Under the pieces are notes generated by a model that saw only the letters and a list, made by a program, of their open reading frames with translations, ran no database searches and was not told the origin of the DNA. From IMG/VR virus record IMGVR_UViG_3300037042_004723, positions 1-64,000 of that record: 64,000 bases of DNA; one strand, given 5' to 3'. Positions 41,206 through 60,923 of this stretch are shown here, piece by piece. The stretch is from a virus. Each line of letters begins with the position of its first letter. The first letter of the stretch is position 1. The translations under genes and the position numbers were made by a program.

Positions 41206-41736
41206 CTAGCCCAGCAGCTGGGCCAGTGCAGCCTTCGCCCGGCTGGCCATGGCCACGGTCACGCCCACCTCACGGGCCGCATCGGTCCACGACTGGCTAC
41301 GCATGAACGCTTCAACAACGGCACGGTGAACCGGCTTGAGCGACGCAACGGCTGCGCGAACCCCCGCAATCTCCTGGCCCCTCACCATGTCGAGGTGCGG
41401 ATCACTGTCGGCGGGCAACGCCTCAGCCACGGGGATGCTGCGCCCGTCGTCGCTCACGACCTGGGGCATCTGAGACTCGAACCTGTGATGAGCCAAGCGC
41501 AGCCAGTTGTGTGCGCGGTACTTCGCAAAGCACGTGAAGTGTGACCGGGCCGAACCCTTGCCCGCATCGAAGGTACGCACGCCGTAGTCGAGCGCCTCGA
41601 CCATGACGCGGCTCATGCACTCGTCGAGGTCGCTCTCGGTGGAGTAGCGCGACCGGCGCAGCACGTTAGCCACGGTGGCGCGCATGGCGGGAAGGACGGT
41701 TAGAATCTCGGAGTGAATCGCTTTGGTGTTCAGCAT
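41206..41736 (-). CDS. ECF-like sigma-70 factor, paralog 1
   Basis: FDAGKGSARSHF...AHNWLR (region 2) and C-terminal HTH; TTGACA-17-TATGAT-7-ATG places the start at MLNTK. Confidence 0.75.
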   Translation of the reverse strand: MLNTKAIHSEILTVLPAMRATVANVLRRSRYSTESDLDECMSRVMVEALDYGVRTFDAGKGSARSHFTCFAKYRAHNWLRLAHHRFESQMPQVVSDDGRSIPVAEALPADSDPHLDMVRGQEIAGVRAAVASLKPVHRAVVEAFMRSQSWTDAAREVGVTVAMASRAKAALAQLLG

Positions 41737-41857
41737 GGTAAGAATCATATACTAAGGGATTGTCAATGTCAACACCTAAGATGGCCATACTGAAGATCTT
41801 TTTGAGAAAACTCAATCAAAGCAATGCAAGAGCGGGCAACCCTTGCGTTACTTCTGA

Positions 41858-42640
41858 TCAGCCGCCCGGCGTGGCCGAAGCTTCGAGCTTCGATCCGCAG
41901 CACGGGCAGAGCCCCGAGCGATCGGACTGGACGTGCAGCTTGCCCGCCTCCCACGACTCGCCCTTGTCCTGCTCCGTGCGATCGTACGCCTCTAATTGCG
42001 TCTTAGCGCCGAAGCCAGCCGCGCCATCACGATACCAATTGTTCGCGTTGTCGGTGTCCCAGCATGCGCCGCAAGCGTCACGATCGCCCGTGCAGTAGAT
42101 GGAAGCCCGAGCATTATCGAAAATGCTCATTTCCTCGCCGCTCACCTCGAACACGCGGGGCCGCGTGTAGCCGCCCCGGACATCCGCTCCGCCGTGGATT
42201 GAGAGCACCACGTATGCCTGGAAATCCAGAACGAAATAAGTGAACTGAATAACCTGGGAAAGGAGATCTTCCCCGTTGTACGTGTTGACGGTCACGGGAT
42301 TCTCATCATTGTAGATGCCACGGGGCCGGTTCTCGCCCTTGCCGAGGTACTCAAGCCAGAGCCCGACGAGCGCGAAACACGACTCGTCCTTGTGCTCCGC
42401 CCTCGCACAGAAGCGGCGGAACTTCTGATCCATGGACTTGGACAGCGTGAGGCGGTCCGCGAGCCAGTGGTACACGTTGAGCGTGACTTCGATCCCGTAC
42501 TTGAAATCGAGGGTAGCCAGTGGTTCCGCATCGAACTTGCGACCCTGGTTACGCTGCCACGCGCGACCGTTCGTGCCGCCGCTGTCGAGGAAGTGGGTGC
42601 CCGTGTTCTCCGTCAGCATATTTGCGATGGTGTTGTTCAT
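41858..42640 (-). CDS. Conserved phage hypothetical protein (260 aa)
   Basis: ENTGTHFLDSGG...R.WQRN, HGGADVRGGYT; class-1 promoter. Confidence 0.8.
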   Translation of the reverse strand: MNNTIANMLTENTGTHFLDSGGTNGRAWQRNQGRKFDAEPLATLDFKYGIEVTLNVYHWLADRLTLSKSMDQKFRRFCARAEHKDESCFALVGLWLEYLGKGENRPRGIYNDENPVTVNTYNGEDLLSQVIQFTYFVLDFQAYVVLSIHGGADVRGGYTRPRVFEVSGEEMSIFDNARASIYCTGDRDACGACWDTDNANNWYRDGAAGFGAKTQLEAYDRTEQDKGESWEAGKLHVQSDRSGLCPCCGSKLEASATPGG

Positions 42641-42708
42641 GTCTCTACTACAACTGGACTAGCTGAGATTTTCGCGAAATTGCATGGGCCCTCAGTTGTA
42701 GTCTATGC

Positions 42709-42918
42709 ATGAGGAAACAAATATCAGTCCACACGGCAACACCTGGGGATCTCGTTCGTCTCGCGCGTGAGAATGGATACGAGATTCTCCCCGGCAGGGG
42801 AAAGGGATCACACATCGTCCTAACCAAAGCAGGTTCACCAAATGTCACAATCCCAGGCGGAAAGCATGTCGGCCGCAACGTGGTCCGCCGCATGATAAAG
42901 GTAATCATGGCAGCATGA
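42709..42918 (+). CDS. hicA: HicA-family toxin-like protein (no HicB seen)
   Basis: GY....RGKGSHIVLTK.G...VTIP...VGRNVVRRMIK; class-1 promoter 6 nt before ATG. Confidence 0.75.
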   Translation: MRKQISVHTATPGDLVRLARENGYEILPGRGKGSHIVLTKAGSPNVTIPGGKHVGRNVVRRMIKVIMAA

Positions 42919-42989
42919 AGCAAGGCAAGGGGGGCTCGGCATCCCCCGAGCCACACACTCGGAAAACTCTAAGAGTTTTCTCTCCTGCC

Positions 42990-43136
42990 TCACGGCACCT
43001 TCACCGAAGTGGCTGCCGCCTGGGCGAACGAGGTTGTTTCGCCCGGTCGGGTCATGTTCATCTGGGCCATGCGAGACTTCATCCAGCGCCAGAACTCCTT
43101 GGCGCACCATGGACACTGTGGGCTGCAATTCTTCAT
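42990..43136 (-). CDS. Small hypothetical protein (48 aa, MKNCSPQCPWC...)
   Basis: Manual translation; class-1 promoter 6 nt before ATG. Confidence 0.6.
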   Translation of the reverse strand: MKNCSPQCPWCAKEFWRWMKSRMAQMNMTRPGETTSFAQAAATSVKVP

Positions 43137-43206
43137 GCAAAGACTACAACTGAGCTAGCTCAGATTTTCAGGTGAAAAAACCAGCTAGCTGAATTGTAGT
43201 AAGGGC

Positions 43207-43575
43207 ATGACCAAGAATACACTGACCGTTATCGTCTGCCGCGTGGGCCAGTTGGCCGTGGTTGAGCAGATGGCCCCTGGGCTCAAGCCCATGCAGGACA
43301 TCGTGGGCGGGCACATCGAGTGCGTCGGCCTGGAAGGCACGCCCTTTGAGCACGGTATCGACCTGTGGTGCGATGAAGAGTTCCTCCTCAAGGACTACAA
43401 GCCAAACCGAACGATCGGCCCCCGGCTTGTCATCCACGGTGATTTCTTCATCGCCGCTCATGACGGGGAGGGCGAAACCCTTGGGCTCACCGATGCAGAG
43501 GTCGCCCGCCTCTTGCCCAAGGTGAAGTCGTGGCCGGTCTTCCTTGGTGCCGGGCTCACGGTTCAGGAGGTCTAA
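43207..43575 (+). CDS. DUF3846-like protein
   Basis: L..MQDIVGGHIECV...LWCDEE......PNR...I.GDFFI. Confidence 0.75.
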   Translation: MTKNTLTVIVCRVGQLAVVEQMAPGLKPMQDIVGGHIECVGLEGTPFEHGIDLWCDEEFLLKDYKPNRTIGPRLVIHGDFFIAAHDGEGETLGLTDAEVARLLPKVKSWPVFLGAGLTVQEV

Positions 43576-43647
43576 CCGGTCGGGCTACGGCCTTGGCCCG
43601 GTAAAACTCTAGACGCCCGGAGGGCGCAAGCGCCGACGCCAGCCGGC

Positions 43648-43941
43648 CTAGCCGAGCACCGCGAACTCGTGGCGACCGCCGCCCAGCTTGCTCCCGCAGC
43701 ACCCGCACGAGCGCCACGAGAACTCATCACAGCCCTTGCCCGCCTCGCTGTCGAAGTTCGGCACGAGATTAGGGCCGAGCGACGCCAGCCCGGCGTTCAC
43801 CTCAGCGATGCGCGCGTCACGCTTGGCCTCAGCCTCAGCGCCCCGCCCGTTCATCTGGTAGTCGAAGATGGAGTAGTCGCCGTTGACGGCGACCGTGGTG
43901 CAGTCGTCGCAGAGTAGGATTCCGTCCCTGATGATTTCCAT
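43648..43941 (-). CDS. Cys-containing hypothetical protein
   Basis: LCDDC...FSWRSCGCCG; class-1 promoter. Confidence 0.75.
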   Translation of the reverse strand: MEIIRDGILLCDDCTTVAVNGDYSIFDYQMNGRGAEAEAKRDARIAEVNAGLASLGPNLVPNFDSEAGKGCDEFSWRSCGCCGSKLGGGRHEFAVLG

Positions 43942-44011
43942 GTAGCAACTACAACTGAGCTAGCTCAGGTTTTCAGGTGAAAATACCGGCGCTCTCAGTT
44001 GTAGTAGCTAC

Positions 44012-44221
44012 ATGAAGAACAACATCACCGAGTACAGCGACGAGGAACTGAGCCTCACCGTCATGAACGACTACCAGCTCTACAAGATGCGCCGCCTACC
44101 GCTGCGCCACCTGCGCGCGACGCTGGAGGAGATTTTCATCTTCACCACCGATCAGTGGGTCGATCTGGTCGAGACCATCGAGGCCGACCTGGCCGAGGGC
44201 GACGAGGCGACGAGCAACTAA
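44012..44221 (+). CDS. Hypothetical protein
   Basis: Class-1 promoter 6 nt before ATG. Confidence 0.75.
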   Translation: MKNNITEYSDEELSLTVMNDYQLYKMRRLPLRHLRATLEEIFIFTTDQWVDLVETIEADLAEGDEATSN

Positions 44222-44311
44222 GGCTCGGGGCTACGGCCCACTGGAAGAAAACTCTAAGAGTTTTCTGAACCACCTCACAGGCTGAGGCGGTTGCCTGTCA
44301 GATTCCGACGG

Positions 44312-44512
44312 CTAGTGCGTCTTCTTCCCGTAGCTGATGCGGAACCACACCCCGCCGTGCATCGCGGCGTCACTCTTGCCCACGAAGCATTTGAAGTCGG
44401 CGTGCTTCAGGTCGGCGGGCATGTTGCGTACGCCAAGCCTCATCGCCCCTGCGCGGGTCATGGGCTTGTCGAACGTGTGTAGACCGCATTTCACGAACAG
44501 CTTTTCGTCCAT
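44312..44512 (-). CDS. Hypothetical protein
   Basis: Class-1-like promoter before ATG. Confidence 0.7.
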   Translation of the reverse strand: MDEKLFVKCGLHTFDKPMTRAGAMRLGVRNMPADLKHADFKCFVGKSDAAMHGGVWFRISYGKKTH

Positions 44513-44653
44513 ATCCCTACTACAATTCAGCCCTTAGAAAGTTTCGTGCGATGGAGCGAAAATTCAGTGTCAGCCAGTTGTAGTAAGACCACGAGAGCGA
44601 AATCAACCGGCCCCGATTCCCGGACGCCCCCCGATTCGCAAAGGATGATTCAG

Positions 44654-44995
44654 ATGAGCACCGCGACCAAGACCGTCCACGCCACCCTTCCCGTGTTCGT
44701 TGCCAAGCAGGAGGGCACCGTCGAGGTGACCCTCGATGAGGCGCTCGCCAACATCAAGGCGCTGCGCGCCCAGATGGCCCCGCTGGAGAAGGCCGAGAAG
44801 CAGCTTATCGAGCTGACCAAGGCCATGATGAAGGCCAAGGGCGTGGAGACGTACACCGCCCCCAGCGGTGACCGCGCGCTCTGGTCGGAGAGCCAGCGCA
44901 GCGAGTTCGACAAGGAGCTTGCCAAGGAGTTGCTCAAGGAGGATTGGGCGCGGGTCCACTCCTTCAAGACCGTCAAGAGCTTCACGGTCAAGTAG
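44654..44995 (+). CDS. Hypothetical Lys-rich helical protein
   Basis: Leadered transcript from a class-1 promoter; AAGGA before ATG. Confidence 0.7.
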   Translation: MSTATKTVHATLPVFVAKQEGTVEVTLDEALANIKALRAQMAPLEKAEKQLIELTKAMMKAKGVETYTAPSGDRALWSESQRSEFDKELAKELLKEDWARVHSFKTVKSFTVK

Positions 44996-44999
44996 GGTT

Positions 45000-45152
45000 C
45001 GTCCCCCGGGAGATAAAACCGGGCTCTGTGACCGCCAGCGCAGCACAACGCTGGACTACTGGCGGCGTCGGTTCAGCGACGTAAACATCTGTGGGAGGCT
45101 GCACACGCCCACGGCGCTCGCTCCCTGGCGGTCAGGGGGCACTTTTCTTTTC
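45000..45152 (+). ncRNA. Putative structured 3'-UTR RNA
   Basis: UGACCGCCAG (45029)/CUGGCGGUCA (45125) closes three hairpins; U-rich tail. Confidence 0.5.
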
Positions 45153-45202
45153 GGCTCAAGAAAACTCTAAGAGTTTTCCGGTTGAGGGCCGAAGCCCAGC
45201 GG

Positions 45203-45664
45203 CTAGCCCCACGAGATGTGGCGGTTGCCAGCCTTCTCGCAGATGCGGAGCATTTGCTCCGTACGCATCCGCAGGTAGCCAGGCATGCGGTCGCCCACGA
45301 TCACGCGCGGGTTCCCCGCAACGCCCATGGCAGCCGCACGGTCCTCGCCCGAGAGGGCGGGGTCGTGGTTGCGCGATTCGTCCCACAGGCGACGACGGCA
45401 ACGTGCGGCCAGTTCGGGCGCAGGAATATCCCCACCGTAATCGGCGCGGATGCTAATCCACTCCATGAATTCCAGCGCGTTGCCGTTGCCCATGTTGACT
45501 TCGGTGTCTGTGCAGTCGGAGCACGAGAACATTTCGGGCGTCTTCTGATCATTTGCCCACGCGGCATCGCACGCATCGCACCAGCGTTGCGAGCAATCGC
45601 AACGGTAGGCCCTGACCATCTGGCCAGCCGCGTTCACTTCCGTGATGTAGAACGTGATGCTCAT
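45203..45664 (-). CDS. Cys-rich hypothetical protein
   Basis: CDCS..WCDAC...CSDC; class-1 promoter. Confidence 0.75.
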   Translation of the reverse strand: MSITFYITEVNAAGQMVRAYRCDCSQRWCDACDAAWANDQKTPEMFSCSDCTDTEVNMGNGNALEFMEWISIRADYGGDIPAPELAARCRRRLWDESRNHDPALSGEDRAAAMGVAGNPRVIVGDRMPGYLRMRTEQMLRICEKAGNRHISWG

Positions 45665-46179
45665 GGTTCTACTACAACTGAGGCAGCCTGGATTTTCATG
45701 GATTCGACGGCAAGGTCTTCGCTCTGATACACGTCCTTCCCATCGATCATGATGATGCGCGTGCGGATGGGCACCCACACGCCGTCACGGAGAGCCCTTG
45801 CCTCGCTCCACGTGGTCCGGTCGGCGAGCACGTAGCCCCTGCCAACCTTCTGAACCCACCCGATGATCGTCCCTGGGAACCTGTCTGTGTCGTACCAGAT
45901 CGGCGCGGTGACGTTGGCGTAGACGGTATCGCCCTCGATCCCGCCCTTGTCCTTGAAGTCACCCACGATGACGTAGGGGACCGTCGCGCCCTTGCCCATC
46001 ACGTTGTGCGCGTTGCGCTCGGTGTTGGCCTCGGTCAGCTTGTAGCCGTTGTAGCCGTAATCGCCCTTCCACATCGACGAGTGGCGGTAGGCGTACGAGT
46101 AGAGGTGAGCCGAGACCTTCGCCCCGTTCACGGCCAGCTGGACCGTCCTGCTGCGTAGCGAGTAGATGTAGATTCCCAT
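45661..46179 (-). CDS. Hypothetical protein
   Basis: Class-1 promoter; 3' end contains the next promoter. Confidence 0.75.
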   Translation of the reverse strand: MGIYIYSLRSRTVQLAVNGAKVSAHLYSYAYRHSSMWKGDYGYNGYKLTEANTERNAHNVMGKGATVPYVIVGDFKDKGGIEGDTVYANVTAPIWYDTDRFPGTIIGWVQKVGRGYVLADRTTWSEARALRDGVWVPIRTRIIMIDGKDVYQSEDLAVESMKIQAASVVVEP

Positions 46180-46247
46180 GACCTAACTACAACTGGGCTC
46201 CCTGGTATTTTCATGAAAAAACCAGCCCGCCTAGTTGTAGTAAGACC

Positions 46248-46412
46248 ACAGGAACAAACAAGCCAACCGGCCAAAAAATAAACACCCCAAACCACAGGAA
46301 TCAATCAATGCTCATATAAGTGACGGTCAATCCCCTCTTGCTCTACCGTAAGCGTGGGGGTCCGAGAATATCTAAGGTAGCCGAGGGGGCTGATCTCCCC
46401 TCGGAGGAATCG
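46248..46412 (+). ncRNA. Putative A/C-rich ncRNA with GGA motifs
   Basis: Class-1 promoter predicts +1 at 46248; no ORF beyond MLI*; ACAGGAA twice; 3' hairpin CCGAGGGG/CCCCUCGG. Confidence 0.4.
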
Positions 46413-46483
46413 CGTCGAGAGTTTTCCGAACGACACTGCATCGATTGCCTGAAAATCCCAGGTGGCCCAGTTGTAGTAGAACC

Positions 46484-46705
46484 ATGAGCAAGTTCAGCAT
46501 CAACGACACGGTCCGGGCGCTACACGACATCATCGACGGCGACGACGTGGTGTGCGCCCGCAAGGGCGACGAGGGCATCATCATCGACATCATCGAGGAC
46601 GAGCCGGACTGCCCGGCGGGCGCGGCCTTCGATGTGCTCTGGCCGCACATGATTACCATCACGAGCGCAAGCGAGATGGAACCGCTGGGCACGCTGCTCA
46701 ACTGA
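46484..46705 (+). CDS. Small beta-rich (SH3-like) hypothetical protein
   Basis: KFSINDTVRA...KGDEGIIID; class-1 promoter. Confidence 0.7.
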   Translation: MSKFSINDTVRALHDIIDGDDVVCARKGDEGIIIDIIEDEPDCPAGAAFDVLWPHMITITSASEMEPLGTLLN

Positions 46706-46812
46706 GCGGCTGGCCTTCGGGCTCGCAGGCGTTGGAAAACTCCTATGGTTATTCGGCCTAGAGTTTTCCGCCCTGGGCGGCCGGGGTCGGGCCCGGCCGC
46801 CTCCTGTGGGGG

Positions 46813-47061
46813 CTAGGCCGCCACCTCCACGAACCCGTGGGAGACGAGCAGCGCCTCGAACTGGGCCAGCAGCTTGTCGGGCTTGCCCGAGAGCCCGAAC
46901 TCCTTACGGAGGATCGTGCTGCACTTGGGGGCCTTGGCGGTGAGCCGCATCCCTGGGTACTTGATCTCGAACTTGAGCCCGCTGAGGATCATCCGGAGTC
47001 GGATGCCGCCCATGGCGTAGGTCTTGTGATGCTCGATCTGCTCGGTCGCCTTGGTGTTCAT
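46813..47061 (-). CDS. Hypothetical protein
   Basis: Class-1 promoter 6 nt before ATG. Confidence 0.75.
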   Translation of the reverse strand: MNTKATEQIEHHKTYAMGGIRLRMILSGLKFEIKYPGMRLTAKAPKCSTILRKEFGLSGKPDKLLAQFEALLVSHGFVEVAA

Positions 47062-47141
47062 GTACCTACTACAACTGAGCTAGCTGGTATTTTCACAGCA
47101 CATCAAATGAAAATCCGGGGCACCCCAGTTGTAGTAGGTAC

Positions 47142-47345
47142 ATGAAGAAGCTGACCACCAAGAAGCTGGACGCGCACATCTCCTCGGTCTACTACCGCGT
47201 GGCCGATGGCAAGGCTATCAACATCATGGACATCGGCAAGGTGTTCAAGGCCGCGCGTGATGCCTATCAGGCCATGCCGGATCTCGCCGTCGTCGAAGCG
47301 GCCATCATCGGCGCGGTCGCCAAGTACTGCAGGGCGGTGAACTAA
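47142..47345 (+). CDS. Hypothetical protein
   Basis: Class-1 promoter 6 nt before ATG. Confidence 0.75.
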   Translation: MKKLTTKKLDAHISSVYYRVADGKAINIMDIGKVFKAARDAYQAMPDLAVVEAAIIGAVAKYCRAVN

Positions 47346-47581
47346 TGGACACCACCAAGAAGCAAACCGTCACCTGCATCGTCCGCGACAATCACCGTCA
47401 TGGCTACCCGGATCCCCTGATCTATGTGGTCGACGTGTCCGATCCACAGGACGAGGTCGAGGTACTCAAGGCTGTCACCGAGTCTCGCCGTGCGGACCTC
47501 GGTGGCGACGACAAGCTCGATCTAACCATCCTGTTGGTCTTTTCCGGCACCCTCAACACAATTTCAGATTGGCGCGAGTGA
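47345..47581 (+). CDS. Hypothetical protein
   Basis: TAATG-coupled. Confidence 0.7.
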   Translation: MDTTKKQTVTCIVRDNHRHGYPDPLIYVVDVSDPQDEVEVLKAVTESRRADLGGDDKLDLTILLVFSGTLNTISDWRE

Positions 47582-47585
47582 ACTA

Positions 47586-47783
47586 ATGCCCCATTTCACA
47601 TTCACCGTCACCCGCGAGACCACCGAGAGCGTGACCGTCACCGTCGAGGCTGACTCCATCAAGGAGGCACATCGCAAAGCGCTGGCCACCCAGTACGGGA
47701 TTCGAGGGTGGGCATATGACGAAGGGAATCACCCTCGCGAGGCATACATCCCCGACGAGGACGATTACAAGGAGGAGGTCTAG
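47586..47783 (+). CDS. Hypothetical protein
   Basis: In operon; V.VEADS.KEA motif. Confidence 0.7.
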   Translation: MPHFTFTVTRETTESVTVTVEADSIKEAHRKALATQYGIRGWAYDEGNHPREAYIPDEDDYKEEV

Positions 47784-47785
47784 CC

Positions 47786-47995
47786 ATGCGCGAATGGCGC
47801 GGATACTGTGAACGCTGCGGCGATAAGTCGTTCAGCTACACGATGTCGCGGTTCAACACTCAGTTGATCTGCGGCCCCTGCAAAAAGAAAGAACGCGAGC
47901 ACCCTGATTACCAGCGCGCGGCGGATGCCGAGCTGGCGTCGTTGAAGCGTGGTGAGCGCAACTTTCCGGGCATCGGGAAGCCGAAGGACCTCTAA
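47786..47995 (+). CDS. Small Zn-finger-like protein
   Basis: CERC...MSRFNT.LIC..C..KE..HPDY. Confidence 0.75.
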   Translation: MREWRGYCERCGDKSFSYTMSRFNTQLICGPCKKKEREHPDYQRAADAELASLKRGERNFPGIGKPKDL

Positions 47996-48077
47996 CCAAG
48001 AAGGAGGAGGGGGCGCGCAAGCGCTTGCGTCGATAGAAAACTCTTAGAGTTTTCCGTTAAGGGCCTTAGCCCGAGGG

Positions 48078-48299
48078 CTACCAGCGCCCCTCGCCATACC
48101 CGTAATCGGGTTCGATGGGCTCGTCGACGTCGGCCTGCGAGTACCCCGTGAGGATCTCCGGGCGGTAGCGACTGAGCTTCGCCGCCCGACACTCGTCGCA
48201 CACCCGGCAGAGCGGGATGCCCTGCGCGTCGTGCTCCCACCACGAGCCGTCGGACTTAGTGTGCGGGTGCCGCTTCAGATGCTCGCTCGGTTGCTTCAT
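48078..48299 (-). CDS. Small CxxC protein
   Basis: WWEHDAQGIPLCRVCDEC; class-1 promoter. Confidence 0.75.
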   Translation of the reverse strand: MKQPSEHLKRHPHTKSDGSWWEHDAQGIPLCRVCDECRAAKLSRYRPEILTGYSQADVDEPIEPDYGYGEGRW

Positions 48300-48368
48300 G
48301 TAGCTACTACAATTCAGCTCGCCCCAATTTTCACTGAAAATACCAGCTAGCCCAGTTGTAGTAGGTAC

Positions 48369-48566
48369 ATGAAGACGATGACCATCAAGGTTCCCCAGTC
48401 CACCCGCCGCTCGGGCGCTGCCATCGCGGCGATGCACCGCAATCCCGTCATCATGCGCCACCGGCTACAGCCTCGGGGCGGGGCGCGCAACGTCCAGGCG
48501 TCCTACTTCGACGAGATCATCGTCGAGGATGAGTCGCACTGGTTCGACGAGGACCGGGACGGCTGA
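48369..48566 (+). CDS. Hypothetical protein
   Basis: Class-1 promoter 6 nt before ATG. Confidence 0.7.
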   Translation: MKTMTIKVPQSTRRSGAAIAAMHRNPVIMRHRLQPRGGARNVQASYFDEIIVEDESHWFDEDRDG

Positions 48567-48574
48567 TCAGTCCT

Positions 48575-48642
48575 GGCACTGACCGGGACGGTTCCCGGCG
48601 GATGATAGCCTGAAAGGCGGTTCGACCCCGCCCAGTGCCACC
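48575..48642 (+). tRNA. tRNA-like element with a shrunken anticodon arm (possible Ile-GAU relic)
   Basis: Acceptor GGCACUG/CAGUGCC-A-CC; D-arm CGGG/CCCG; T-arm GGCGG-UUCGACC-CCGCC; 66 nt to the discriminator. Confidence 0.65.
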
Positions 48643-48721
48643 GCAGCGGAAAACTCTAAGAGTTTTCTAAGCCGCGCTGGGCTTGGTAGCCCGTCACCCT
48701 TGGTAGGGCTTGCGCTGTCGC

Positions 48722-49027
48722 TCACGCCGGGCGGGAGACGTGGCCCTCCGTTCCGTCGTCGAAGGTGATCGGATCGTGCTCCCCGCAGAGCTTGGCGACC
48801 GTGAGCCCATCGGGCAGGTTGGGCACGCTGAACAGGAGCGAGCCACGGTCGAACACCCAGGGCTCGAAGGTGATCGGCGTGTCGAGCGGAATGTCGATGG
48901 CAACGCTCATCGCATCGAAGGTCAGCACGTCACCCTTGACGGTGAGTCTGCGAACCAGCCTGCCCGAGTAGAGGCAGCGAATTTCCGCACCATGGTGCCC
49001 GTTCATCAAGTCAGCGAAAGTCTTCAT
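48722..49027 (-). CDS. Hypothetical protein
   Basis: Class-1 promoter 6 nt before ATG. Confidence 0.7.
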   Translation of the reverse strand: MKTFADLMNGHHGAEIRCLYSGRLVRRLTVKGDVLTFDAMSVAIDIPLDTPITFEPWVFDRGSLLFSVPNLPDGLTVAKLCGEHDPITFDDGTEGHVSRPA

Positions 49028-49097
49028 GGTTCTACTACAACTGGGCCAACCGAAACTTTCACCTGAAAACCTGAGCTAGCTCAGTTGTAGTTAGACC

Positions 49098-49679
49098 ATG
49101 AGCATCATCGTTAAAATCATCCAGGACGACAACGCAGAGTCGCCCCGCACCTTCGACAACGTTGGCGTCATGGCGTGTTGGCACCGACGCTACAACCTTG
49201 GTGACGTGCAGCCTAAGGGCGAGGATCCGGCCGAGTGGCTCAAGGAGAATGCCCCCAAGGGCTCAGTGGCGCTTCCCCTGTATCTGTACGATCACAGCGG
49301 GATCACCATGAGCACGGGCTCCTTTGGTGACGTGTGGGATTCCGGCCAGGTCGGCTGGATTGTCGCCACGCCCGACGCAATCCGTAAGAACTTCATGGTC
49401 AAGCGCATCACGGCCAAGATGCGCGCAACCGTTGAGGAAATCCTCAAGTCCGAAGTGAAGATTTACGACCACTACCTCACGGGCAACGTGTGGGGCTACA
49501 CCATCGAATCCGTCAAGGATTGCGATTCGTGCGGCCACGAAACCAAGGGGGACGAGGACGTGGACGATTCGTGTTGGGGGTTCTTCGGCGATGATCTGGC
49601 CTTCACCGGGATCAAGGATCACGTGGACGCGAAGTATCACGAAGCTCTCGAAGCAGCGTGGGACATGCGGTTCCGGTAG
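49098..49679 (+). CDS. Conserved phage hypothetical protein
   Basis: LPLYLYDHSGITM...WDSGQVGWI...YL.GNVWGY...SCWGFFG. Confidence 0.8.
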   Translation: MSIIVKIIQDDNAESPRTFDNVGVMACWHRRYNLGDVQPKGEDPAEWLKENAPKGSVALPLYLYDHSGITMSTGSFGDVWDSGQVGWIVATPDAIRKNFMVKRITAKMRATVEEILKSEVKIYDHYLTGNVWGYTIESVKDCDSCGHETKGDEDVDDSCWGFFGDDLAFTGIKDHVDAKYHEALEAAWDMRFR

Positions 49680-49796
49680 GCGGACCGGCGGGGTTCGTTG
49701 CCTCGCAGGCTTGGAAAACTCTGGCCCATAGGGAGTTTTCTTGGCCGCGCCCGCCGGGCGGCCAAGGCTACGGCTTGTCCTTTACCTCGGCCACGG

Positions 49797-50204
49797 TTAC
49801 GTTGAACGGGCCGCTTCGATTTGGTGAGCGCGCCACTCTTGGTAGCCGAGCCGCGTGTCGCCGTTGGCTACCTCGTGCTGCCAATCTTCCTCGGGGTACG
49901 CCCACGTCAGCAGCACCCAGACCTGGGATTCGCCGCCTTCGTAGTCATCCGGGATGACATCAAGCCGGTTGCCATGCTCGTCGAATGGGCGGAGGTCAAC
50001 GCCCTCCAGCGCGCCACGGACTGCGTGAGCAATTTCATCCTGATCAATGTGATCGGGCACGTTGACATCATTGAGCATGTCGTCGAAGGCGCTCTCGATG
50101 GTTCCGCCAAGGTATGCGCCGACCAGGCATTCACCGGGACGGTTGTGATGGTCCTGTAGGTAGTCCGAGAAGCACGTGTCGATGTAGCGAGCGTTGATGG
50201 TCAT
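49797..50204 (-). CDS. Acidic hypothetical protein
   Basis: EVANGDTRLGY.EW motif; class-1 promoter. Confidence 0.75.
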   Translation of the reverse strand: MTINARYIDTCFSDYLQDHHNRPGECLVGAYLGGTIESAFDDMLNDVNVPDHIDQDEIAHAVRGALEGVDLRPFDEHGNRLDVIPDDYEGGESQVWVLLTWAYPEEDWQHEVANGDTRLGYQEWRAHQIEAARST

Positions 50205-50273
50205 GGTCCTACTACAATTCAGTTCATCGGGATTTTCACTGAAAATTATAGGATACTCGGTTGTAGTAAGGTC

Positions 50274-52637: not shown

Positions 52638-53159
52638 CTAGCGGAGCGCCTTCAGCTTGGCGGCGATTTCCCGGCGGCGGCGGGTGGCCGTGGCCGGCGA
52701 CCATCCCACCAGTGCGCCCGCCTCGGTCTGGGTCATGCCCCGGTTGATTGCCAGGATGAACGCGCGCTCGCCCTCGGGGAGCGTGGCAAGCGCCATGGCA
52801 AGCCACTGGCCTTCCTCGGTGCGCAGGGCATCCGCCCGACCGTCAGAGCCCGGAAGGCCGTCCACAATCCGGTCCATCCCTTCCGCCCGGTCTGAATCGC
52901 CGTCCGACTTCTTGGTCACCACGTCGTGGGTGCGGTAGCCCTCCGACTTGACGTGGTTGCGGGCAACGTTGCCCGCGAGCTTGGCGCAGAACGTCGCCAC
53001 CTTGCCACGGGTGGGGTCGAAAACCTCGCCCTTTTCCAGGCACTCAACAACGGAATTATTAAGGATATCCTCCTCGTCGCCGCGCTTGCCCACGGCGCGC
53101 AGGATGGCGACGGTCATAGCGGTGAGAACTTCGGTGGTCATGTCGTTGCGGTTGAGCAT
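52638..53159 (-). CDS. ECF-like sigma-70 factor, paralog 2
   Basis: FDPTRGKVATF...ARNHVK; LPEGER...MTQTEAGALVGWSPAT. Confidence 0.8.
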   Translation of the reverse strand: MLNRNDMTTEVLTAMTVAILRAVGKRGDEEDILNNSVVECLEKGEVFDPTRGKVATFCAKLAGNVARNHVKSEGYRTHDVVTKKSDGDSDRAEGMDRIVDGLPGSDGRADALRTEEGQWLAMALATLPEGERAFILAINRGMTQTEAGALVGWSPATATRRRREIAAKLKALR

Positions 53160-53371
53160 TCATCAGTTGTAGCCTATCATGAGCCGATAGTCAAGGTATC
53201 TTTTGTCATGGTATGCAGATACTTGGCACGATCATTGACAATGCATTGGTATGACCGGAAAACTCTACGGCGCAAGCGTAAGAGTTTTCCTGGTGCGCCA
53301 AGCGGCGCGGTGCGCCAAGCGGGGCCAGAACGCGCCACGCCAACCCCCGTGGGGGCCGCGCCGGGCGTGGC

Positions 53372-53802: not shown

Positions 53803-54306
53803 CTAGCGGAGCGCCGCCAGCTTCTCGGCGATTGCCTTGCGGCGGCGGGTGGAGGTGGCCGGGGACCATCCGACCAGCGCGCCCGCCTCGGTCTGGCCCA
53901 TGCCCTGATTGATTGCCCGGATGAAGGCCCGTTCCTCGTCGGTGAGCGTGGCGAGCGCCATGGCAAGCCACTGGCCTTCCTCGGTGCGCAGGGCATCGGC
54001 CCGGCCATCGTCGCCCGGAAGGCCATCCACGATGCGCGTGGGCTCGCCTTCCTCGCCCTTGGTCACCACGTCATGCGAGCGGTATCCCTCAGCCTTGACG
54101 TGGTTACGGGCCACGTTGCCCGCGAGCTTGGCGCAGAACGTCGCCACCTTGCCCCGGGCGGCATCGAACGCCTCGCCCTTCTCCAGGCACTCCACCACGG
54201 AATCGTTGAGGATATCCTCAAGGTCGGCACGCTTGCCGACAGCGCGGACAATGGCGACGGTCATGGCGGTGAGGACTGCGGAGGTCATGTCGGTGTGGTT
54301 CAGCAT
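53803..54306 (-). CDS. ECF-like sigma-70 factor, paralog 3
   Basis: Closely similar to paralog 2; TTGCAT-17-TAAGGT-7-ATG. Confidence 0.8.
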   Translation of the reverse strand: MLNHTDMTSAVLTAMTVAIVRAVGKRADLEDILNDSVVECLEKGEAFDAARGKVATFCAKLAGNVARNHVKAEGYRSHDVVTKGEEGEPTRIVDGLPGDDGRADALRTEEGQWLAMALATLTDEERAFIRAINQGMGQTEAGALVGWSPATSTRRRKAIAEKLAALR

Positions 54307-54466
54307 GGGATTGACCTTAAGCTATATCTTATCTCAATGCAACAACAATCGACAGGGATCTGCACTTATTTTTCCGGGCCAGCTTCCGGTGGCTTACGGA
54401 AAACTCTAAACGTCTGACAGTGCATGGAGTTTTCCGGTTGCCCGGTGGCGCGGTGCGCCCGGTGGC

Positions 54467-55093: not shown

Positions 55094-55123
55094 GTCTTTT
55101 TCAGCCTTTCGAAGGTTCGAAGG

Positions 55124-55490: not shown

Positions 55491-55844
55491 TTAGGCGACG
55501 CCGAGGGCCTGCGCCACGTCAACAACCCAGTTGACCGGCTCGGGGTAGCGATGCACGCGGCCGTTATCGACCCGGCCCTGACGCATGGTGATGTTCGAGT
55601 AGCGCACCAGGGTGAAGCGCCACGTCTTCGTGGTCGGCTCCCAGCGGAAGCCACGCGCCTTGAGAGCGTTACGGGCCTGGTAGGCATTGCCGACCACGAT
55701 CTCCGTCTCGGTGTACTTGATCGAGATCTTCGCCTCCACGGCCTCCCACAGCGCGGCGCGCTTGAAGGTCTCGGCCATCATGGCGGCCATCTCGGCCATC
55801 TCGGGTTGCGTCTCGGCGGTGTCCGTCTCGGTGTGATTCAGCAT
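55491..55844 (-). CDS. Hypothetical protein (MLNHT...)
   Basis: LKARGFRWEPTTKTW motif. Confidence 0.75.
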   Translation of the reverse strand: MLNHTETDTAETQPEMAEMAAMMAETFKRAALWEAVEAKISIKYTETEIVVGNAYQARNALKARGFRWEPTTKTWRFTLVRYSNITMRQGRVDNGRVHRYPEPVNWVVDVAQALGVA

Positions 55845-55993
55845 TCCCCTTTATCGCACGGACCGAGGTGCATTGTCAAGCATGTAATGCCATGCAATGC
55901 AGATAGTTGTACGGAAAACTCTAAGCTCTGACAGTGGGGTGGAGTTTTCTGATGCGCTTGCGGCGCGCGGTCTGCGGCCTGCCCGGCGGGGCC

Positions 55994-56278
55994 TTACTCG
56001 CCCGGATCTCCGTAGGAGGATTCAATCTCGGCACCGCAGTGATCGCAGGGCATCGGCGGACCCTCCCAGTAAACATCAGCACCGATCAGCCGCCACTGCT
56101 TATCGGTGTCCGGGGCCTCGGACGCCTCGCTTCCGTTGTCGCCGTTGGCGCAGGCGGGGCACAGACACCCTCCGTCGGCCACGTAGTAGACCAGCGTGTA
56201 GCAGCCGATCGAGGTGAAGGAGTACAAACGACCATTGCCCATACGCGGGAGGGCGGCGGAAGCGGTGTTGTTCAGCAT
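55994..56278 (-). CDS. Cys-rich hypothetical protein (MLNNT...)
   Basis: DGGCLCPAC...CDHCG.EIESSYG; TTGACA-17-TAAGGT-6-ATG. Confidence 0.8.
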   Translation of the reverse strand: MLNNTASAALPRMGNGRLYSFTSIGCYTLVYYVADGGCLCPACANGDNGSEASEAPDTDKQWRLIGADVYWEGPPMPCDHCGAEIESSYGDPGE

Positions 56279-56419
56279 GTACAGACCTTAGCAGGTCTTG
56301 CGTGTATTGTCAATCGCATAATGCCATTCAATGCAGATAGTTAGGCGGAAAACTCTAACCTATAAGCTGTTAAAGGGAGTTTTCTTAGCGTGCGTCGGCC
56401 GGGCGAACCCGGCGGGCTG

Positions 56420-56641
56420 CTAAGCGCCGGTCGGGATGTACTTCGACCCCTTGATGAACGGGCCCCAGACGGTGAGACCACCCGAGGTGATCTCGATGGC
56501 TTCGTCCTCGCGGAGCGTGCGGTACATGTCGATCGCCAGGTTCCTGACGTCATCGAACGCGCGGCCCTGCTGCGCAGGGTGCGAGGAGATGGTCTCGAAG
56601 CGGGCGGCGGGCTTGGCAACTGCGATGTGGTAGTTCAGCAT
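56420..56641 (-). CDS. Hypothetical protein (MLNYH...)
   Basis: TTGACA-17-TAAGGT-6-ATG. Confidence 0.7.
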   Translation of the reverse strand: MLNYHIAVAKPAARFETISSHPAQQGRAFDDVRNLAIDMYRTLREDEAIEITSGGLTVWGPFIKGSKYIPTGA

Positions 56642-56843
56642 TTAATGACCTTAGCAGGTGATGGTTGCATTGTCAATGCATTGAATGCGTGACAATGATG
56701 AATTGCTTCGAGTGGCGGCGTATCCTGCCCCTACTACAATTGTGCTCGCCTGAATTTTCATCATATCAATGCAGGGGAAAACTCTAAGGTCTGACAGCAG
56801 GTAGAGTTTTCTTAACGCCTGACCGGGCGAACCCGGCGGGGCC

Positions 56844-57149
56844 CTAGAACATCCACTGAACCGGCGGGGCGTTCTCGCTCCACGCGGCGACCAGCATGTC
56901 TCGGTCGTCGTCGAACACAACAGGCTCGAACGACACCACGCACTCGCTCTCGGCCTGCGTCAGCTTGCGGTACTGACGGAGCGCGGCCTTACGCTCTTGC
57001 TTGGCCCAGTCCAGCCACCCGCAGTCGGCGCAGCAGGGGTCCCACACCTGGCACTGCCAGTCGATGAACGCTGCCAGGGCTTCCTCGATAGCCAGGTCGT
57101 TCTCGTGGTCTGCCAGCCCTTCGGCTAGCGCGGCTTGTCTGTTCAGCAT
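56844..57149 (-). CDS. Hypothetical protein (MLNRQ...)
   Basis: ORF track; CCADC. Confidence 0.7.
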   Translation of the reverse strand: MLNRQAALAEGLADHENDLAIEEALAAFIDWQCQVWDPCCADCGWLDWAKQERKAALRQYRKLTQAESECVVSFEPVVFDDDRDMLVAAWSENAPPVQWMF

Positions 57150-57199
57150 CTGTCCTCCTAGTGGTGATGACGTGGCGGGGCGCGCGAATCTGACGGGGG

Positions 57200-57337
57200 C
57201 TAGCCCATGACTCGCTGGAACGGGTCAGCGATGGCGATGGCTTGCGCCATGGTCATCTGCCCGATGGCTCGGCTACCATTGCGACCGAGGAGGGTCAGGG
57301 CGCGGCAGGAAACGACCTTCACGATGATTTGCTTCAC
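57200..57337 (-). CDS. Small hypothetical protein (45 aa)
   Basis: Class-1 promoter 6 nt before GTG. Confidence 0.55.
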   Translation of the reverse strand: MKQIIVKVVSCRALTLLGRNGSRAIGQMTMAQAIAIADPFQRVMG

Positions 57338-57465
57338 GCTATCACTACAACTGTGCTCGGTCGGATTTTCAGGTGATTTTATCGAAGACCAGGCCGGGCT
57401 AGACCAGGCCGGAAAACTCTTAGAGTTTTCTTGATGCAGCATCGGCGCGGTGCGCCGGGCCCCGC

Positions 57466-57852
57466 CTAGATGAGCGACAGGAGGGCCGCTCCGTCCGGCG
57501 TGGCCGGGGCCACGTTCCAGTGGGGGCCGAACGAGATCCCGACCACATCGGGCGTCTCATCCTGGCGCGCGTCGCCCATCACCGTGCCGATGATGTAGCT
57601 GCCATCGCGGGCCACCAGGGCCACGTTGCAGCCCAGGGAAGCGGCCACGGTGGCCTGCTTCGCGAAGATTAGCCGATCGGGGCCGATGAGGGCCTCGATC
57701 TCGGCCAGTCGCTCGGCGATGAACTCGGCCTCATCGTCGCCGCCACCGCAGCACCAGTCGCAACCCACCAGGGTGTCGCTCATGACCGCGCGACGCGCGC
57801 GGAGGGTGATGCGCTCGGAGAGGAGGAGGGCGACCGTGGAGTGGTTCAGCAT
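57466..57852 (-). CDS. Hypothetical protein (MLNHS...)
   Basis: GCDWCCGGGD; class-2 promoter. Confidence 0.75.
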   Translation of the reverse strand: MLNHSTVALLLSERITLRARRAVMSDTLVGCDWCCGGGDDEAEFIAERLAEIEALIGPDRLIFAKQATVAASLGCNVALVARDGSYIIGTVMGDARQDETPDVVGISFGPHWNVAPATPDGAALLSLI

Positions 57853-58030
57853 TCATCAGTTGTAGCATGGTTACCTTGACAATGCAACAACTATCTACTA
57901 ACAATCGACTGTCAAGATCTGCGGATCCTGTTAGGAAAACTCGGGTTGGCGCAACGCAGTGCGTGGCCATATGAGAGTTTTCCAAACCCACGGGCGAGAT
58001 CGGGCGGGGTGCCCGGTCGCCCCGGTCGGG

Positions 58031-58588
58031 CTACTCGTCGCCGTCCTCGTCGCCGTCCTCGCCGGACACAGCGGCCTTGAGCGCGGCGAGGAGCGCGGCC
58101 CGCTTGCGCGTGGCCTTGACGGCGTTCCAGCCGAACGCCTTGCCAGCGTCCCCGATGGACTCGCCCCGGATGAGGGCCCGGACGAAGGCCCGGTCGGTCT
58201 CGTCCTGGATCTCGGAGATCGCCAGGGCCAGATCTTGAGCCTCCATCGAACGGGCCACCTCGACCCGCCCATCGGCACCGGGCAGGGACTCGACGATCAT
58301 CTCGCCGCCATTCTCGCCCTCATCGTCGCTCGCCGTCACCACGTCATGCGAGCGGTAGCCCTCGGCCTTCATGTGGTTGCGGGCCGTGTTCCCGGCGATC
58401 TTGCAGCAGAAGTTGCTGAAGTTGCCACGGGCCGCGTCGAAGCTCTCGATCTGCTCCATGACGCGCACGCACGAATCGTTCAGGATGTCGTTCAGGTCGG
58501 CATTCTTGCCAACGGCGCGGACGATCGCGCCCGTCATGGATCCGATGGTGGTGGTGGTGATGATGGTCGGGACCGTGTGATTCAGCAT
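58031..58588 (-). CDS. ECF-like sigma-70 factor, paralog 4
   Basis: FDAARGNFSNF...ARNHMK; HTH IGDAGKAFGWNAVKATR. Confidence 0.8.
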   Translation of the reverse strand: MLNHTVPTIITTTTIGSMTGAIVRAVGKNADLNDILNDSCVRVMEQIESFDAARGNFSNFCCKIAGNTARNHMKAEGYRSHDVVTASDDEGENGGEMIVESLPGADGRVEVARSMEAQDLALAISEIQDETDRAFVRALIRGESIGDAGKAFGWNAVKATRKRAALLAALKAAVSGEDGDEDGDE

Positions 58589-58732
58589 TCATCAGTTGTA
58601 GCCTATCAAGAGCCGATAGTCAAGGTATCTTTTGCCATGCAATGCAGATAGTTTGCACTGTCCTTAACAATGCATTAACCTGACCGGAAAACTCTAAACC
58701 ACCATTGAGGGCACATGGCCTTTAGAGTTTTC
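58589..58732 (-). repeat. ~140-bp class-2 promoter cassette; near-identical copies before 53159, 59089, 59613, 60169 and 62532
   Basis: Shared gatagtcaaggtatcttttgccatgcaatgcagatag...caatgca...gaccggaaaactc. Confidence 0.85.
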
Positions 58733-58777
58733 TCCATGGCGGAAAAATCTGACGCGGTGCGCCAGCCCGCCGGGCTG

Positions 58778-59089
58778 CTACTCGGTGTAGCAGCCGGGGC
58801 AGGTGGTCACCCCGAGCGCGTCACAGTGGCCGCCCTCGTCGAGACGGTGGCCGACCGTGAGCCCGGCCCGGGTGGCGTCTTCGAGGGTAGCGCCCACGTT
58901 GACAGCGTTCGCGGCTTCGATCTCAGCGTCGCAGACGTCGCACGTCTCGACGGCGAACATTCTGATCATGCCAGGGTAAACGCTGGCAGTCGCATTCGAG
59001 AAACCCCAGTTCTTCGCCAGCGAACGGAGTGCCATAACGGCGAGGGGGAGGTGGCGGGTGGAACCAAAGAACTTCGTGTGATTCAGCAT
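58778..59089 (-). CDS. Cys-containing hypothetical protein (MLNHT...)
   Basis: TCDVC...HC...TCPGC. Confidence 0.7.
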   Translation of the reverse strand: MLNHTKFFGSTRHLPLAVMALRSLAKNWGFSNATASVYPGMIRMFAVETCDVCDAEIEAANAVNVGATLEDATRAGLTVGHRLDEGGHCDALGVTTCPGCYTE

Positions 59090-59268
59090 TCATCAGTTGT
59101 AGCCTATCAAGAGCCGATAGTCAATGTATCTTTTGCCTTGCTATGCAGATAGTTGGCACGATCCTTGACAATGCACTGGTCAGACCGGAAAACTCTGTTT
59201 AACCATTAAGGCACATGGCCTTTAGAGTTTTCTCCCAGCACTGGCGGCCCCGGCGGCGGGCCGGGGGG

Positions 59269-59613
59269 CTAGCGGTCCAGCGGGTGGCAGGTGTTGATCA
59301 CCTGTCCCATGTAGTCCATTGCGGCCAGGAAGTCCCCAGCGGGGCGGATCAGCAAGGCGCACAGGTCGCCCGGCAGCATGGCCAGGGCATCCGCGCAGAA
59401 GGCGTCCCACACGTGACCCGGCTGGAAGATGAACGGGGCCAGGTCCGCCAGGTCGATCATCCCGTCCTCCCACTGGTCACGGCGCTCGGCGTCCGTGGTG
59501 GCCAGGAGGGTGCCGAAGGACGGCAGGGCGGCCACGGTGGCCTGGTAGGCGACCCATGCCTCCATGGTGGCAACGGTGGCGGGGGAGGTGGCGGGAGCGG
59601 TGTTCTTGAGCAT
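59269..59613 (-). CDS. Hypothetical protein (MLKNT...)
   Basis: Class-2 promoter 6 nt before ATG. Confidence 0.7.
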   Translation of the reverse strand: MLKNTAPATSPATVATMEAWVAYQATVAALPSFGTLLATTDAERRDQWEDGMIDLADLAPFIFQPGHVWDAFCADALAMLPGDLCALLIRPAGDFLAAMDYMGQVINTCHPLDR

Positions 59614-59791
59614 CCATCAGTTGTAGCCTATCAAGAGCCGATAGTCAAGGTATCTTTTGCCATGCAATACAGATAGTTGGCACACATCTTGACAATGCAT
59701 TGGTCAGACCGGAAAACTCTATTTAGTCATTAAGCATTAGCTTAAGTGGAGTTTTCCTGTCTGGAGTCGGCGCGGTGCGCCGGCCCGGATC

Positions 59792-60169
59792 TCAGAGCGA
59801 AGCGCCGGCCAGATAGGCGGCGATCACGAGCCGATCTGCCTGAGCGCGGAGGATGGCATCGGCCTGATCGTCCTCCTGCGCGAGCTGGCGATACCAGTTC
59901 TCCTCGCGTCGCCAGCTCGCCAGCTCGGCGAAGTAATCGAAATAACGCTCCTCGTCGCTCGTCATGTGGTACTCGTCCCACATGTCAGCGTCCATGATTG
60001 CGCACTCGGCGCAATCACAGCCCCGGAGCGGACAGGCCGTCCAGAACGGGGCCACGTCCAGATCCAGGCCGTTGTCGGCCAGAGTCATCGCCTTGCGTCG
60101 GGCAAGGTTCGCGAGGTGGAGCTTGTGCCCCTGGTAGCGGTGCATCGTGTGGCCGGTGGTGTTCGACAT
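59792..60169 (-). CDS. Hypothetical protein (MSNTT...)
   Basis: CPLRGCDCAEC; class-2 cassette upstream. Confidence 0.65.
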   Translation of the reverse strand: MSNTTGHTMHRYQGHKLHLANLARRKAMTLADNGLDLDVAPFWTACPLRGCDCAECAIMDADMWDEYHMTSDEERYFDYFAELASWRREENWYRQLAQEDDQADAILRAQADRLVIAAYLAGASL

Positions 60170-60347
60170 CTGAGAACCATCATGGACTATCATCGCCCGA
60201 TTGTCAAGGTATCTTTTGCCATGCAATGCAGATAGTTTGCGCGTACCTGACAATGCATTTACTTTAACCGGAAAACTCCATTAATGGCCTGGTAATGGAG
60301 TTTTCTTGACAGGCCTAGTCGGCGCCGGAGGGCGCCCGGCCCTGAGG

Positions 60348-60923
60348 CTAGATCTTGTCGGCCAGAGCGGCCGTGATCGAGCGGTAGCGGCGCGTCGTGG
60401 TCGCGGGTGACCAGCCCAAGAGGGCGCCGGCCTCGCACTGGCCCATGCCCCCGGCCATCGCATCCAGGAACGTCTGCGAGTCAGCGTCAAGCGCGAGCAT
60501 GGCATCGGCCAGAGCCTTGCGCTCGAAGTAGCGCACCATGTCAGCGGCGCCATCCACGCCCACGAGCGTATCGACGAGCGCGACCTCGGAGTCATCGTCG
60601 CCGAGGTTCGTCTCGGAGTCGTGGTTACGGTTCGCGTGAGCCTTGCGCCAGTTGCGCGCAGCGTTCGCAGCGATGCGGCACGCCCACGAGACGATCGACC
60701 CCTTCGACCAGTCGAACGACTCGGCGTGCTCCATCATGCTCACGAGCGCATCCTGCACAACGTCAGACGTTGCGCTCGTCTCGCCGATGGTACGCTCGAC
60801 GGTGCGCGCCATGGTCTTGAACAGGTCGGGGTTGCCGATCTGGCTCATGACGTCCAAGCGAGTCTCGCTCGACGCGCCCGTGGAAGTGAAACCGTTGTGA
60901 CCGATGTTCGTGTGATTCACCAT
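60348..60923 (-). CDS. ECF-like sigma-70 factor, paralog 5
   Basis: DVVQDALV...FDWSKGSIVSWACRIAANAARNWRK; MGQCEAGALLGWSPATTTRR. Confidence 0.85.
   Translation of the reverse strand: MVNHTNIGHNGFTSTGASSETRLDVMSQIGNPDLFKTMARTVERTIGETSATSDVVQDALVSMMEHAESFDWSKGSIVSWACRIAANAARNWRKAHANRNHDSETNLGDDDSEVALVDTLVGVDGAADMVRYFERKALADAMLALDADSQTFLDAMAGGMGQCEAGALLGWSPATTTRRYRSITAALADKI

Follow-up and report, generated by a model that had tools for sequence, protein, structure and literature searches.

An uncultured phage whose middle programme seems to be driven by an expanded family of extracytoplasmic function-type sigma factors

Phage-encoded sigma factors are textbook material. Characterised phages carry one to three of them, with SPO1 and SP10 at three (PMC9429907). 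The first 64 kb of the IMG/VR virus record IMGVR_UViG_3300037042_004723, a genome of 197,279 bp that is rated complete by CheckV, contain five genes that an earlier note, made from the sequence alone, described as paralogous sigma factors resembling the extracytoplasmic function (ECF) type and possibly forming a two-tier cascade. What might a single virus do with so many? Examination of this 64,000-bp stretch (here called the window), of the rest of the record and of related contigs led us to conclude that the host polymerase is most likely reprogrammed by a phage with unusually many sigma factors. The scheme that we favour, with a probability of roughly 0.7, has two tiers: host sigma70 would express the phage sigmas, and these would in turn read a regulon marked by a phage-specific promoter motif. 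In this uncultured T4-like lineage, a family of ECF-type sigmas that has expanded from two to six copies seems to drive the middle programme.

The sigma paralogs and their relation to ECF sigma factors

All five open reading frames were confirmed on the minus strand, with good coding-potential scores. They are sigma1 (41206–41736; 176 aa from MLNTK), which is the most diverged and whose longest open reading frame reaches 41748, sigma2 (52638–53159; 173 aa), sigma3 (53803–54306; 167 aa), sigma4 (58031–58588; 185 aa), in which the region 4.2 helix is altered (GWNAVKATRKR) and the tail is acidic, and sigma5 (60348–60923; 191 aa from MVNHT), which belongs to the most widely conserved lineage. Comparison with orthologs indicates that the start of sigma1 is most likely M5 (41736) and that of sigma5 most likely 60923. 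With these starts, the N terminus reads MV-N in sigma5 and ML-N in the other four proteins.

When sigma5 was used to query its own genome, the other four paralogs were returned at E 7.6e-32, 2.5e-28, 1.7e-23 and 2.7e-4, and the region-2-like block FD..(R/K)G...A.N that the earlier note had pointed out is invariant across the alignment of the five (F60, D61, G65, A75, A79 and N81). As that note had also observed, sigma2 and sigma3 are close, sharing 79% identity, and sigma1 is diverged, being 21–27% identical to the other paralogs. The sigma1 orthologs in contigs L010 and L012 are 47–50% identical. The genes are under purifying selection and their function has been maintained: in unsaturated pairs dN/dS is 0.25–0.36 over the whole length (0.28 for sigma2 and sigma3).

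The count of five holds for the window. A sixth sigma-like gene, encoding 176 aa, lies on the minus strand 278 bases beyond the window end (genome 64278–64808, L017:278–808). Its family is collinear with the sigma5 family (hhalign 96.8%, E 2.2e-10), it scores 26 bits against TIGR02937, a TTGACA-type promoter is found upstream and two of its homologs are named 'specialized sigma subunit' by JGI. The Foldseek matches listed for its predicted fold, which has a predicted local distance difference test (pLDDT) score of 69, are all sigma factors, but weak (E 2e-3 and above). The sigma set of this phage thus comprises five genes, and probably six with this very diverged one.

A profile built from 24 sequences of the sigma5 family was compared with PDB, and the best matches were ECF sigmas, namely a sigE/sigW chimera (1.6e-7), CnrH (1.8e-7), AlgU, SigK and SigL. 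CnrH aligned across both domains (profile positions 42–176). The profile of the sigma1 clade returned R. sphaeroides RpoE (6.3e-5) and SigK, and hhalign joined this clade to the sigma5 family at 99.9% (E 3.5e-34). PHROG 1740, 'RNA polymerase sigma factor', matched at 1e-8 to 1e-9 (2.4e-9 for sigma2). The AlphaFold2 model of sigma5 (pLDDT 79.8) consists of two helical bundles and a low-confidence linker, and its top Foldseek matches are sigma factors, nearly all of them full-length and of the ECF type. The sigma2/sigma4 fold, on which the earlier note had made its proposal depend, is therefore present by profile, model and Foldseek evidence, and the proteins have the two-domain layout of group 4, with sigma2 and sigma4 joined by a short linker, neither region 1.1 nor region 3, and a length of 167–191 aa. 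Against the Pfam Sigma70_r2 model (cut-off 24), sigma4 (34.6 bits) and sigma5 (39.4 bits) are above the cut-off, sigma3 reaches 20.3 bits, and sigma1 and sigma2 have no match as single sequences; the paralogs that fall below are tied in through profile comparison. As far as computation can tell, the five are clear but remote members of the ECF family. By its own statement, the published ECF classification did not capture phage ECFs (PMC7826278).

Modelling with the RNA polymerase (RNAP) core, which had been put forward as a check, gave a result consistent with this assignment. The sigma2 domain of sigma5 was folded with residues 200–360 of Caulobacter beta', alongside three controls. The score was 0.66, against 0.01 for the best control, the mark being reached in 58 of 80 solved complexes and in 2 of 110 mismatched pairs. 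The runs shared at least 77% of their contacts, the pLDDT of the partner was at least 76, and the predicted interface places beta' 273–300, the clamp helices, against the helices of sigma regions 2.1 and 2.2. As like complexes have already been solved, this pass shows likeness and is no proof of binding by sigma5. On this model, the paralogs would bind the host core in vivo.

Metagenomic collections contain 24 close homologs of sigma5, and 74 representatives were obtained at 50% clustering (E below 1e-10). In a quick tree the family falls into four lineages, of sigma1, sigma5, sigma2/3 and sigma4 type; sigma4 groups with P0041 and P0038 in a lineage of its own (support 98). Two IMG/VR contigs, G001 and G002, represent one phage and carry two sigmas, one sigma5-like and one sigma1-like. 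Three sigmas are found in L012 and L115, in the conserved order sigma5, sigma2/3, sigma1, and L025 has at least two before the contig ends.

Promoters of the sigma genes and of the putative regulon

With the exception of sigma5, every sigma gene in the window is preceded, at 6–7 nt from its ATG, by a readable promoter of the host sigma70 type, in each case on the minus strand and in a leaderless arrangement. The promoter of sigma1 (41743–41772), read from the sequence, is TTGACA-N17-TATGAT-N7-ATG and that of sigma3 (54307–54342) is TTGCAT-N17-TAAGGT-N7-ATG, while sigma2 (53160–53194) and sigma4 (58589–58623) have the same class-2 form, TTGACT-N17-TACAAC-N6-ATG. The earlier note had given every paralog a promoter of this kind, which stands for these four and is ambiguous for sigma5. 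Both sigma genes of G002 are likewise under readable sigma70-type promoters, the sigma1 ortholog having TTGACT-N17-TAGGTT-N6-ATG.

The phage-specific motif described below (NGAAA-N17-TGTAGN) was not found upstream of any of the five sigma genes, nor upstream of either of those in G002. The sigma genes thus show neither autoregulation nor a sigma-to-sigma step, and the scheme has two tiers only. Searches of ten genes neighbouring the sigma genes with Pfam and PHROG returned no anti-sigma family and no other named family.

A hairpin element precedes all five sigma genes. About 45 copies of this hairpin, GGAAAACTC-(loop of 3 to ~35 nt)-GAGTTTTCC, are present between ~20.7 and 63.8 kb of the window, for example on the minus strand at 51.5–63.7 kb. 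The element is flanked by a GC-rich hairpin on one side and the following promoter on the other. In T4-like phages, PeSL (promoter early stem-loop) cassettes, in which a conserved stem-loop is followed by an early promoter, flank small genes in hyperplastic regions (PMC4122927). Here, the GGAAAACTC-loop-GAGTTTTCC hairpin and then a promoter stand before nearly every gene at 51–64 kb. At least ten unrelated early genes at 52.6–59.6 kb and in G002, sigma genes included, start with ATGCTG(AAC), and the sigma70-type cassettes seem to run into the coding sequence. These common starts suggest that genes are shuffled by way of the cassettes or that leaderless mRNAs favour a particular 5' end.

A second, quite different promoter motif dominates the window. 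TGAAA-N14-20-TGTAGT has 48 matches there, where 0.05 would be expected by chance, and the relaxed form NGAAA-N17-TGTAGN is present in 73 copies genome-wide, 72 of them within the first 71 kb. A start codon (ATG or GTG) lies 5–7 nt downstream of 62 of the 73 sites, and at most sites the -10 element ends 6 nt ahead of it. With this spacing, transcription is expected to start at the A of the ATG, which would make the mRNAs leaderless. Group-1 (housekeeping) sigmas need an A at -11. As the phage motif has a G at that position, it is unfit for normal recognition by a housekeeping sigma. A spacer of 16–17 nt with GAAA and xGT elements is ECF-like, as in sigW, sigE and PvdS-type promoters. The 73 bipartite copies have the spacer of an ECF promoter and co-occur with the sigma clade, which makes this clade a candidate reader of the motif.

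The main promoter array, class 1a, extends from 23634 to 57371 on both strands with the form (T/C/A)GAAAAT-N9-gCtCAGTTGTAGT-N6-ATG, and includes 12 back-to-back divergent pairs. These pairs lie at 36577–50240 with their -35 elements 1–13 nt apart (e.g. 43143–43170 on the minus strand and 43173–43200 on the plus strand), and each drives two small genes outwards. The left arm (58–22423, minus strand) contains class-1b variants, (T/C)GAAAG...TGTAG(A/G/T)TAGG.C-ATG, which head longer operons; those with TGTAGA or TGTAGG have their -35 elements at 7518, 13630, 15881 and 22423. The left arm also encodes a phage-borne translation initiation factor 3 (IF3; 259–729, minus strand; 199 bits against TIGR00168 infC, cut-off 60), which is notable beside early genes that appear to be leaderless.

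The earlier note proposed to check whether the motif is found together with the sigma clade, and it is. In all relatives scanned (G001/G002, L012 and L025, with L115 outside the motif scan) it is dense and has identical spacing to the ATG. A blind scan of IMG/VR with TGAAAA-N14-GTTGTAGT was concordant: among the matches listed, the sole stretch with multiple matches (6) came from G001, the sole contig listed twice was G002 and every other stretch had a single match. The exact 17-base form of the motif returned six single matches in IMG/VR, which is the level of chance.

Readers of the promoter classes

Three Pfam domain searches of the whole genome returned no match to the RNAP beta, beta' or T7-type polymerase domains, the controls being positive for both multisubunit domains and not for the T7-type. 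Thus, the host polymerase must serve the phage, unless the phage has a polymerase of its own that is too diverged for detection. Upon infection, host RNAP with its housekeeping sigma would fire the sigma70-type promoters (TTGACA-N17-TAnnnT or TACAAC) that stand 6–7 nt from the ATG of some 15–20 immediate-early genes, yielding leaderless mRNAs. The five sigma paralogs and the diverged sixth one would be among the products. These two-domain (sigma2 and sigma4) ECF-type proteins would bind the host core via the clamp helices of beta' and redirect it to the ~73 NGAAA(A/G)-N16-TGTAGN promoters, where a -10 element ending 6 nt before the ATG would again give leaderless mRNAs. Host-type promoters on the sigma genes, an ECF-like motif and the failure to detect a phage RNAP favour this scheme, within which core binding in vivo, the pairing of sigmas with promoters and the timing are inferred.

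Several observations weigh against it. All curated ECF models give single-sequence scores below their cut-offs: the best score against TIGR02937 is 41.1 bits (sigma5) versus a cut-off of 42.9, the other paralogs reaching 25–35 bits (35.2 for sigma2), and the best against Sigma70_r4_2 is 15 bits versus 25.7. The promoter of sigma5 cannot be read cleanly. The cassette upstream of this gene (60924–60990, minus strand) belongs to a second cassette family and is homologous to those before g123, g129 and g133; neither its exact -10 element nor its start site can be placed unambiguously, and the expected start site is off the ATG. One dominant promoter class is set against six sigmas, with no distinct target found for most paralogs, and two-block motif enumeration in the upstream regions at 71–197 kb found no recurrent late-promoter motif. 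Start sites and timing are predicted from promoter geometry. The contrast seen in the blind IMG/VR scan holds for the matches listed. Finally, the phage IF3 is only ~50% identical to infC of Sphingomonadales, Polyangiales and Verrucomicrobia, and so indicates no single host group.

Only AGATCT and TGATAT are enriched in the late upstream regions, and each is a candidate for a late promoter core. AGATCT is found in 8 of 26 such regions, and the counts for TGATAT are 7 in 3 kb of intergenic and 5 in 70 kb of coding DNA. The late operons at 124–197 kb (L020–L023) are led by Shine-Dalgarno sequences and show no bipartite promoter. A PHROG scan of ten mid-size proteins from 99–124 kb found no gp55-like factor, the sole match being one 'transcriptional regulator'; the rest of the genome may still hold a gp55.

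The region 4.2 recognition helix is GWSPATTTRR in the sigma5 type, GWSPATATRRR in the sigma2/3 type, GW(N/H/S)A(V/A)KATRKR in the sigma4 type and G(V/M)SxATASR(M/A)K in the sigma1 type. It is nearly invariant within each lineage and, with the region 2 block, is the best conserved part of the proteins. As the helix that reads the -35 element is nearly identical in sigma5, sigma2 and sigma3 (GWSPATxTRR), these should have a common -35 preference, and they are most likely the readers of the main promoter class. Sigma1, from a separate ancestral lineage, may read the GAAAG/TGTAG(A/G)TAGG subclass or late promoters.

It is possible, if somewhat unlikely, that the paralogs divide the promoter subclasses among them or differ in when they act, which would refine the two-tier scheme rather than oppose it. 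Sigma5, sigma2 and sigma3 might, for example, read class 1a (GAAAAT...CAGTTGTAGT), sigma1 class 1b (GAAAG...TGTAG(A/G)TAGG), and sigma4 and/or the sixth sigma the late promoters. The two-sigma phage G002 already has two deep lineages, one sigma5-like and one sigma1-like. Its promoters show an association between the variant at position 6 of the -35 element and the final -10 base (Fisher p=1.2e-4), with the two subclasses in separate genome regions; the helices of sigma4 and sigma1 are also unlike that of sigma5/2/3. In the present phage, however, there are only 5 non-T sites and the association is weak (p=0.037). In the three-sigma relatives the last -10 base varies, and the sites listed for them show no change that goes with it. 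The helix core S-x-A-T-x-(T/S)-R is kept in all lineages, so that -35 preference may be identical, and a separate late motif was not found. The earlier note was right to place the TGTAGA and TGTAGG variants in the left arm, but its suggestion that they are paralog-specific is only weakly supported. A more ambitious version, which we regard as doubtful, holds that the six sigmas form a non-redundant timing and targeting device that replaces MotA/AsiA (middle) and gp55 (late) of T4, with paralogs dedicated to the 1a, 1b and late sets or adapted to hosts that differ in their RNAP cores or anti-sigma defences. If the paralogs were adapted to different hosts, sigma copy number would be a determinant of host range or counter-defence.

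Other explanations take the motif array away from the phage sigmas. It could be read by a host factor, either a host ECF sigma or a phage-modified holoenzyme, with the phage sigmas aimed at host or late genes. The evidence that ties the sigmas to the motif is indirect, and GAAA-N16-xGT promoters are like those of many bacterial ECF sigmas. We consider this quite improbable, as the motif accompanies the phage sigma clade across phages even though the sigmas are only ~50% identical, which counts against a host factor as its reader. In addition, 73 near-identical sites would be a heavy load for a stress-gated host ECF sigma, and the sigma genes are under early promoters, where the reader of the next tier is expected. 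The earlier note also raised the possibility that the paralogs are decoys that mainly soak up core RNAP for host shut-off, with promoter reading secondary. Six sigmas that are expressed together and are predicted to share much of their -35 specificity do look redundant, and the predicted beta' interface is canonical. This is nonetheless highly unlikely, as the best conserved parts of each lineage are the DNA-reading helix and the region 2 block, selection acts over the whole length of the genes and a large matching promoter regulon is present. The two-tier scheme, in which the phage sigmas read that regulon, is the one that we retain.

Genome setting and known systems

The window is best explained as the early arm of a myophage of 197 kb with a distant relationship to T4. 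The genome has ~300 genes (our own codon-bias gene calls), and PHROG matches in the right two thirds are those of a myovirus, including a portal with an HNH insert, a tape measure, a baseplate wedge, helicases and a DnaB-like helicase. One protein of the head region is ~35% identical to the head maturation protease/scaffolding region of T4-like Klebsiella phages. Neither megablast with 40–62 kb nor tblastn with sigma4 and sigma5 found a relative among 50,697 phage records, and there is thus no cultured close relative within that set.

Two long genes outside the window may carry an intein or a homing-endonuclease insertion. These are the portal gene (L024:2551–7689, plus strand), which encodes 1712 aa with an internal HNH-endonuclease segment, and a gene at L020:11669–16060 (plus strand), whose 1463-aa product resembles a terminase over a short stretch only. 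Intergenic stretches at ~90.6–98.3 kb (L018) have the appearance of a tRNA gene cluster on the minus strand; no tRNA genes were found in the 64-kb window.

Coupled to the sigma family described here are a phage-borne IF3 and ~73 leaderless promoters of nearly identical sequence. The lineage provides a compact collection of candidate orthogonal sigma/promoter pairs, defined by sequence, and a natural case in which to ask why a virus multiplies sigmas that apparently read one -35 element.

Leaderless expression on a genome-wide scale, with the -10 element fixed 6–7 nt from the start codon, is known from Deinococcus-Thermus, but the reader there is the housekeeping sigma (PMC12340547), whereas here an alternative, phage-specific promoter would be used too. 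The bacterial ECF sigmas, among them E. coli sigmaE, B. subtilis SigW, CnrH and M. tuberculosis SigH, SigL and SigK, have the same sigma2 and sigma4 layout, provide the best sequence and fold matches and recognise bipartite promoters with a 16–17 nt spacer. The phage genes differ from a bacterial ECF module in that they have no adjacent anti-sigma and no autoregulatory promoter, are monocistronic and leaderless, and score below the family cut-offs.

Like T4, to which its virion genes are distantly related, this phage has a hyperplastic early region of single-gene cassettes with the PeSL layout of stem-loop followed by early promoter (PMC2839356, PMC4122927). T4, however, relies on MotA/AsiA in the middle phase of transcription and on gp55/gp33/gp45 in the late phase (PMC2839356, PMC4122927), and in the literature we found no description of an ECF-type sigma set in a T4-like phage. 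Closer in strategy is coliphage phiEco32, which is without an RNAP of its own and whose gp36, a distant ECF-like sigma with the helper gp79, takes the host core to middle and late phage promoters (PMC12276001). We compared gp36 by description only. phiEco32 is a podophage with one sigma, whereas five or six are present here in a T4-like phage, a gp79-like partner was not identified and the promoters abut the ATG, giving leaderless mRNAs.

The Bacillus phages SPO1 (gp28, gp33/34 and gp2.21) and SP10 have three sigma factors each (PMC9429907, PMC13401047). They resemble the present phage in carrying several sigmas and in that early genes dependent on the host sigma encode sigmas for later classes. 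In SPO1, a true cascade leads from gp28 to gp33/34 and serves distinct promoter classes. Here, by contrast, the sigma genes have host-type promoters, one dominant phage class is visible and the sigmas are ECF-type paralogs of one another.

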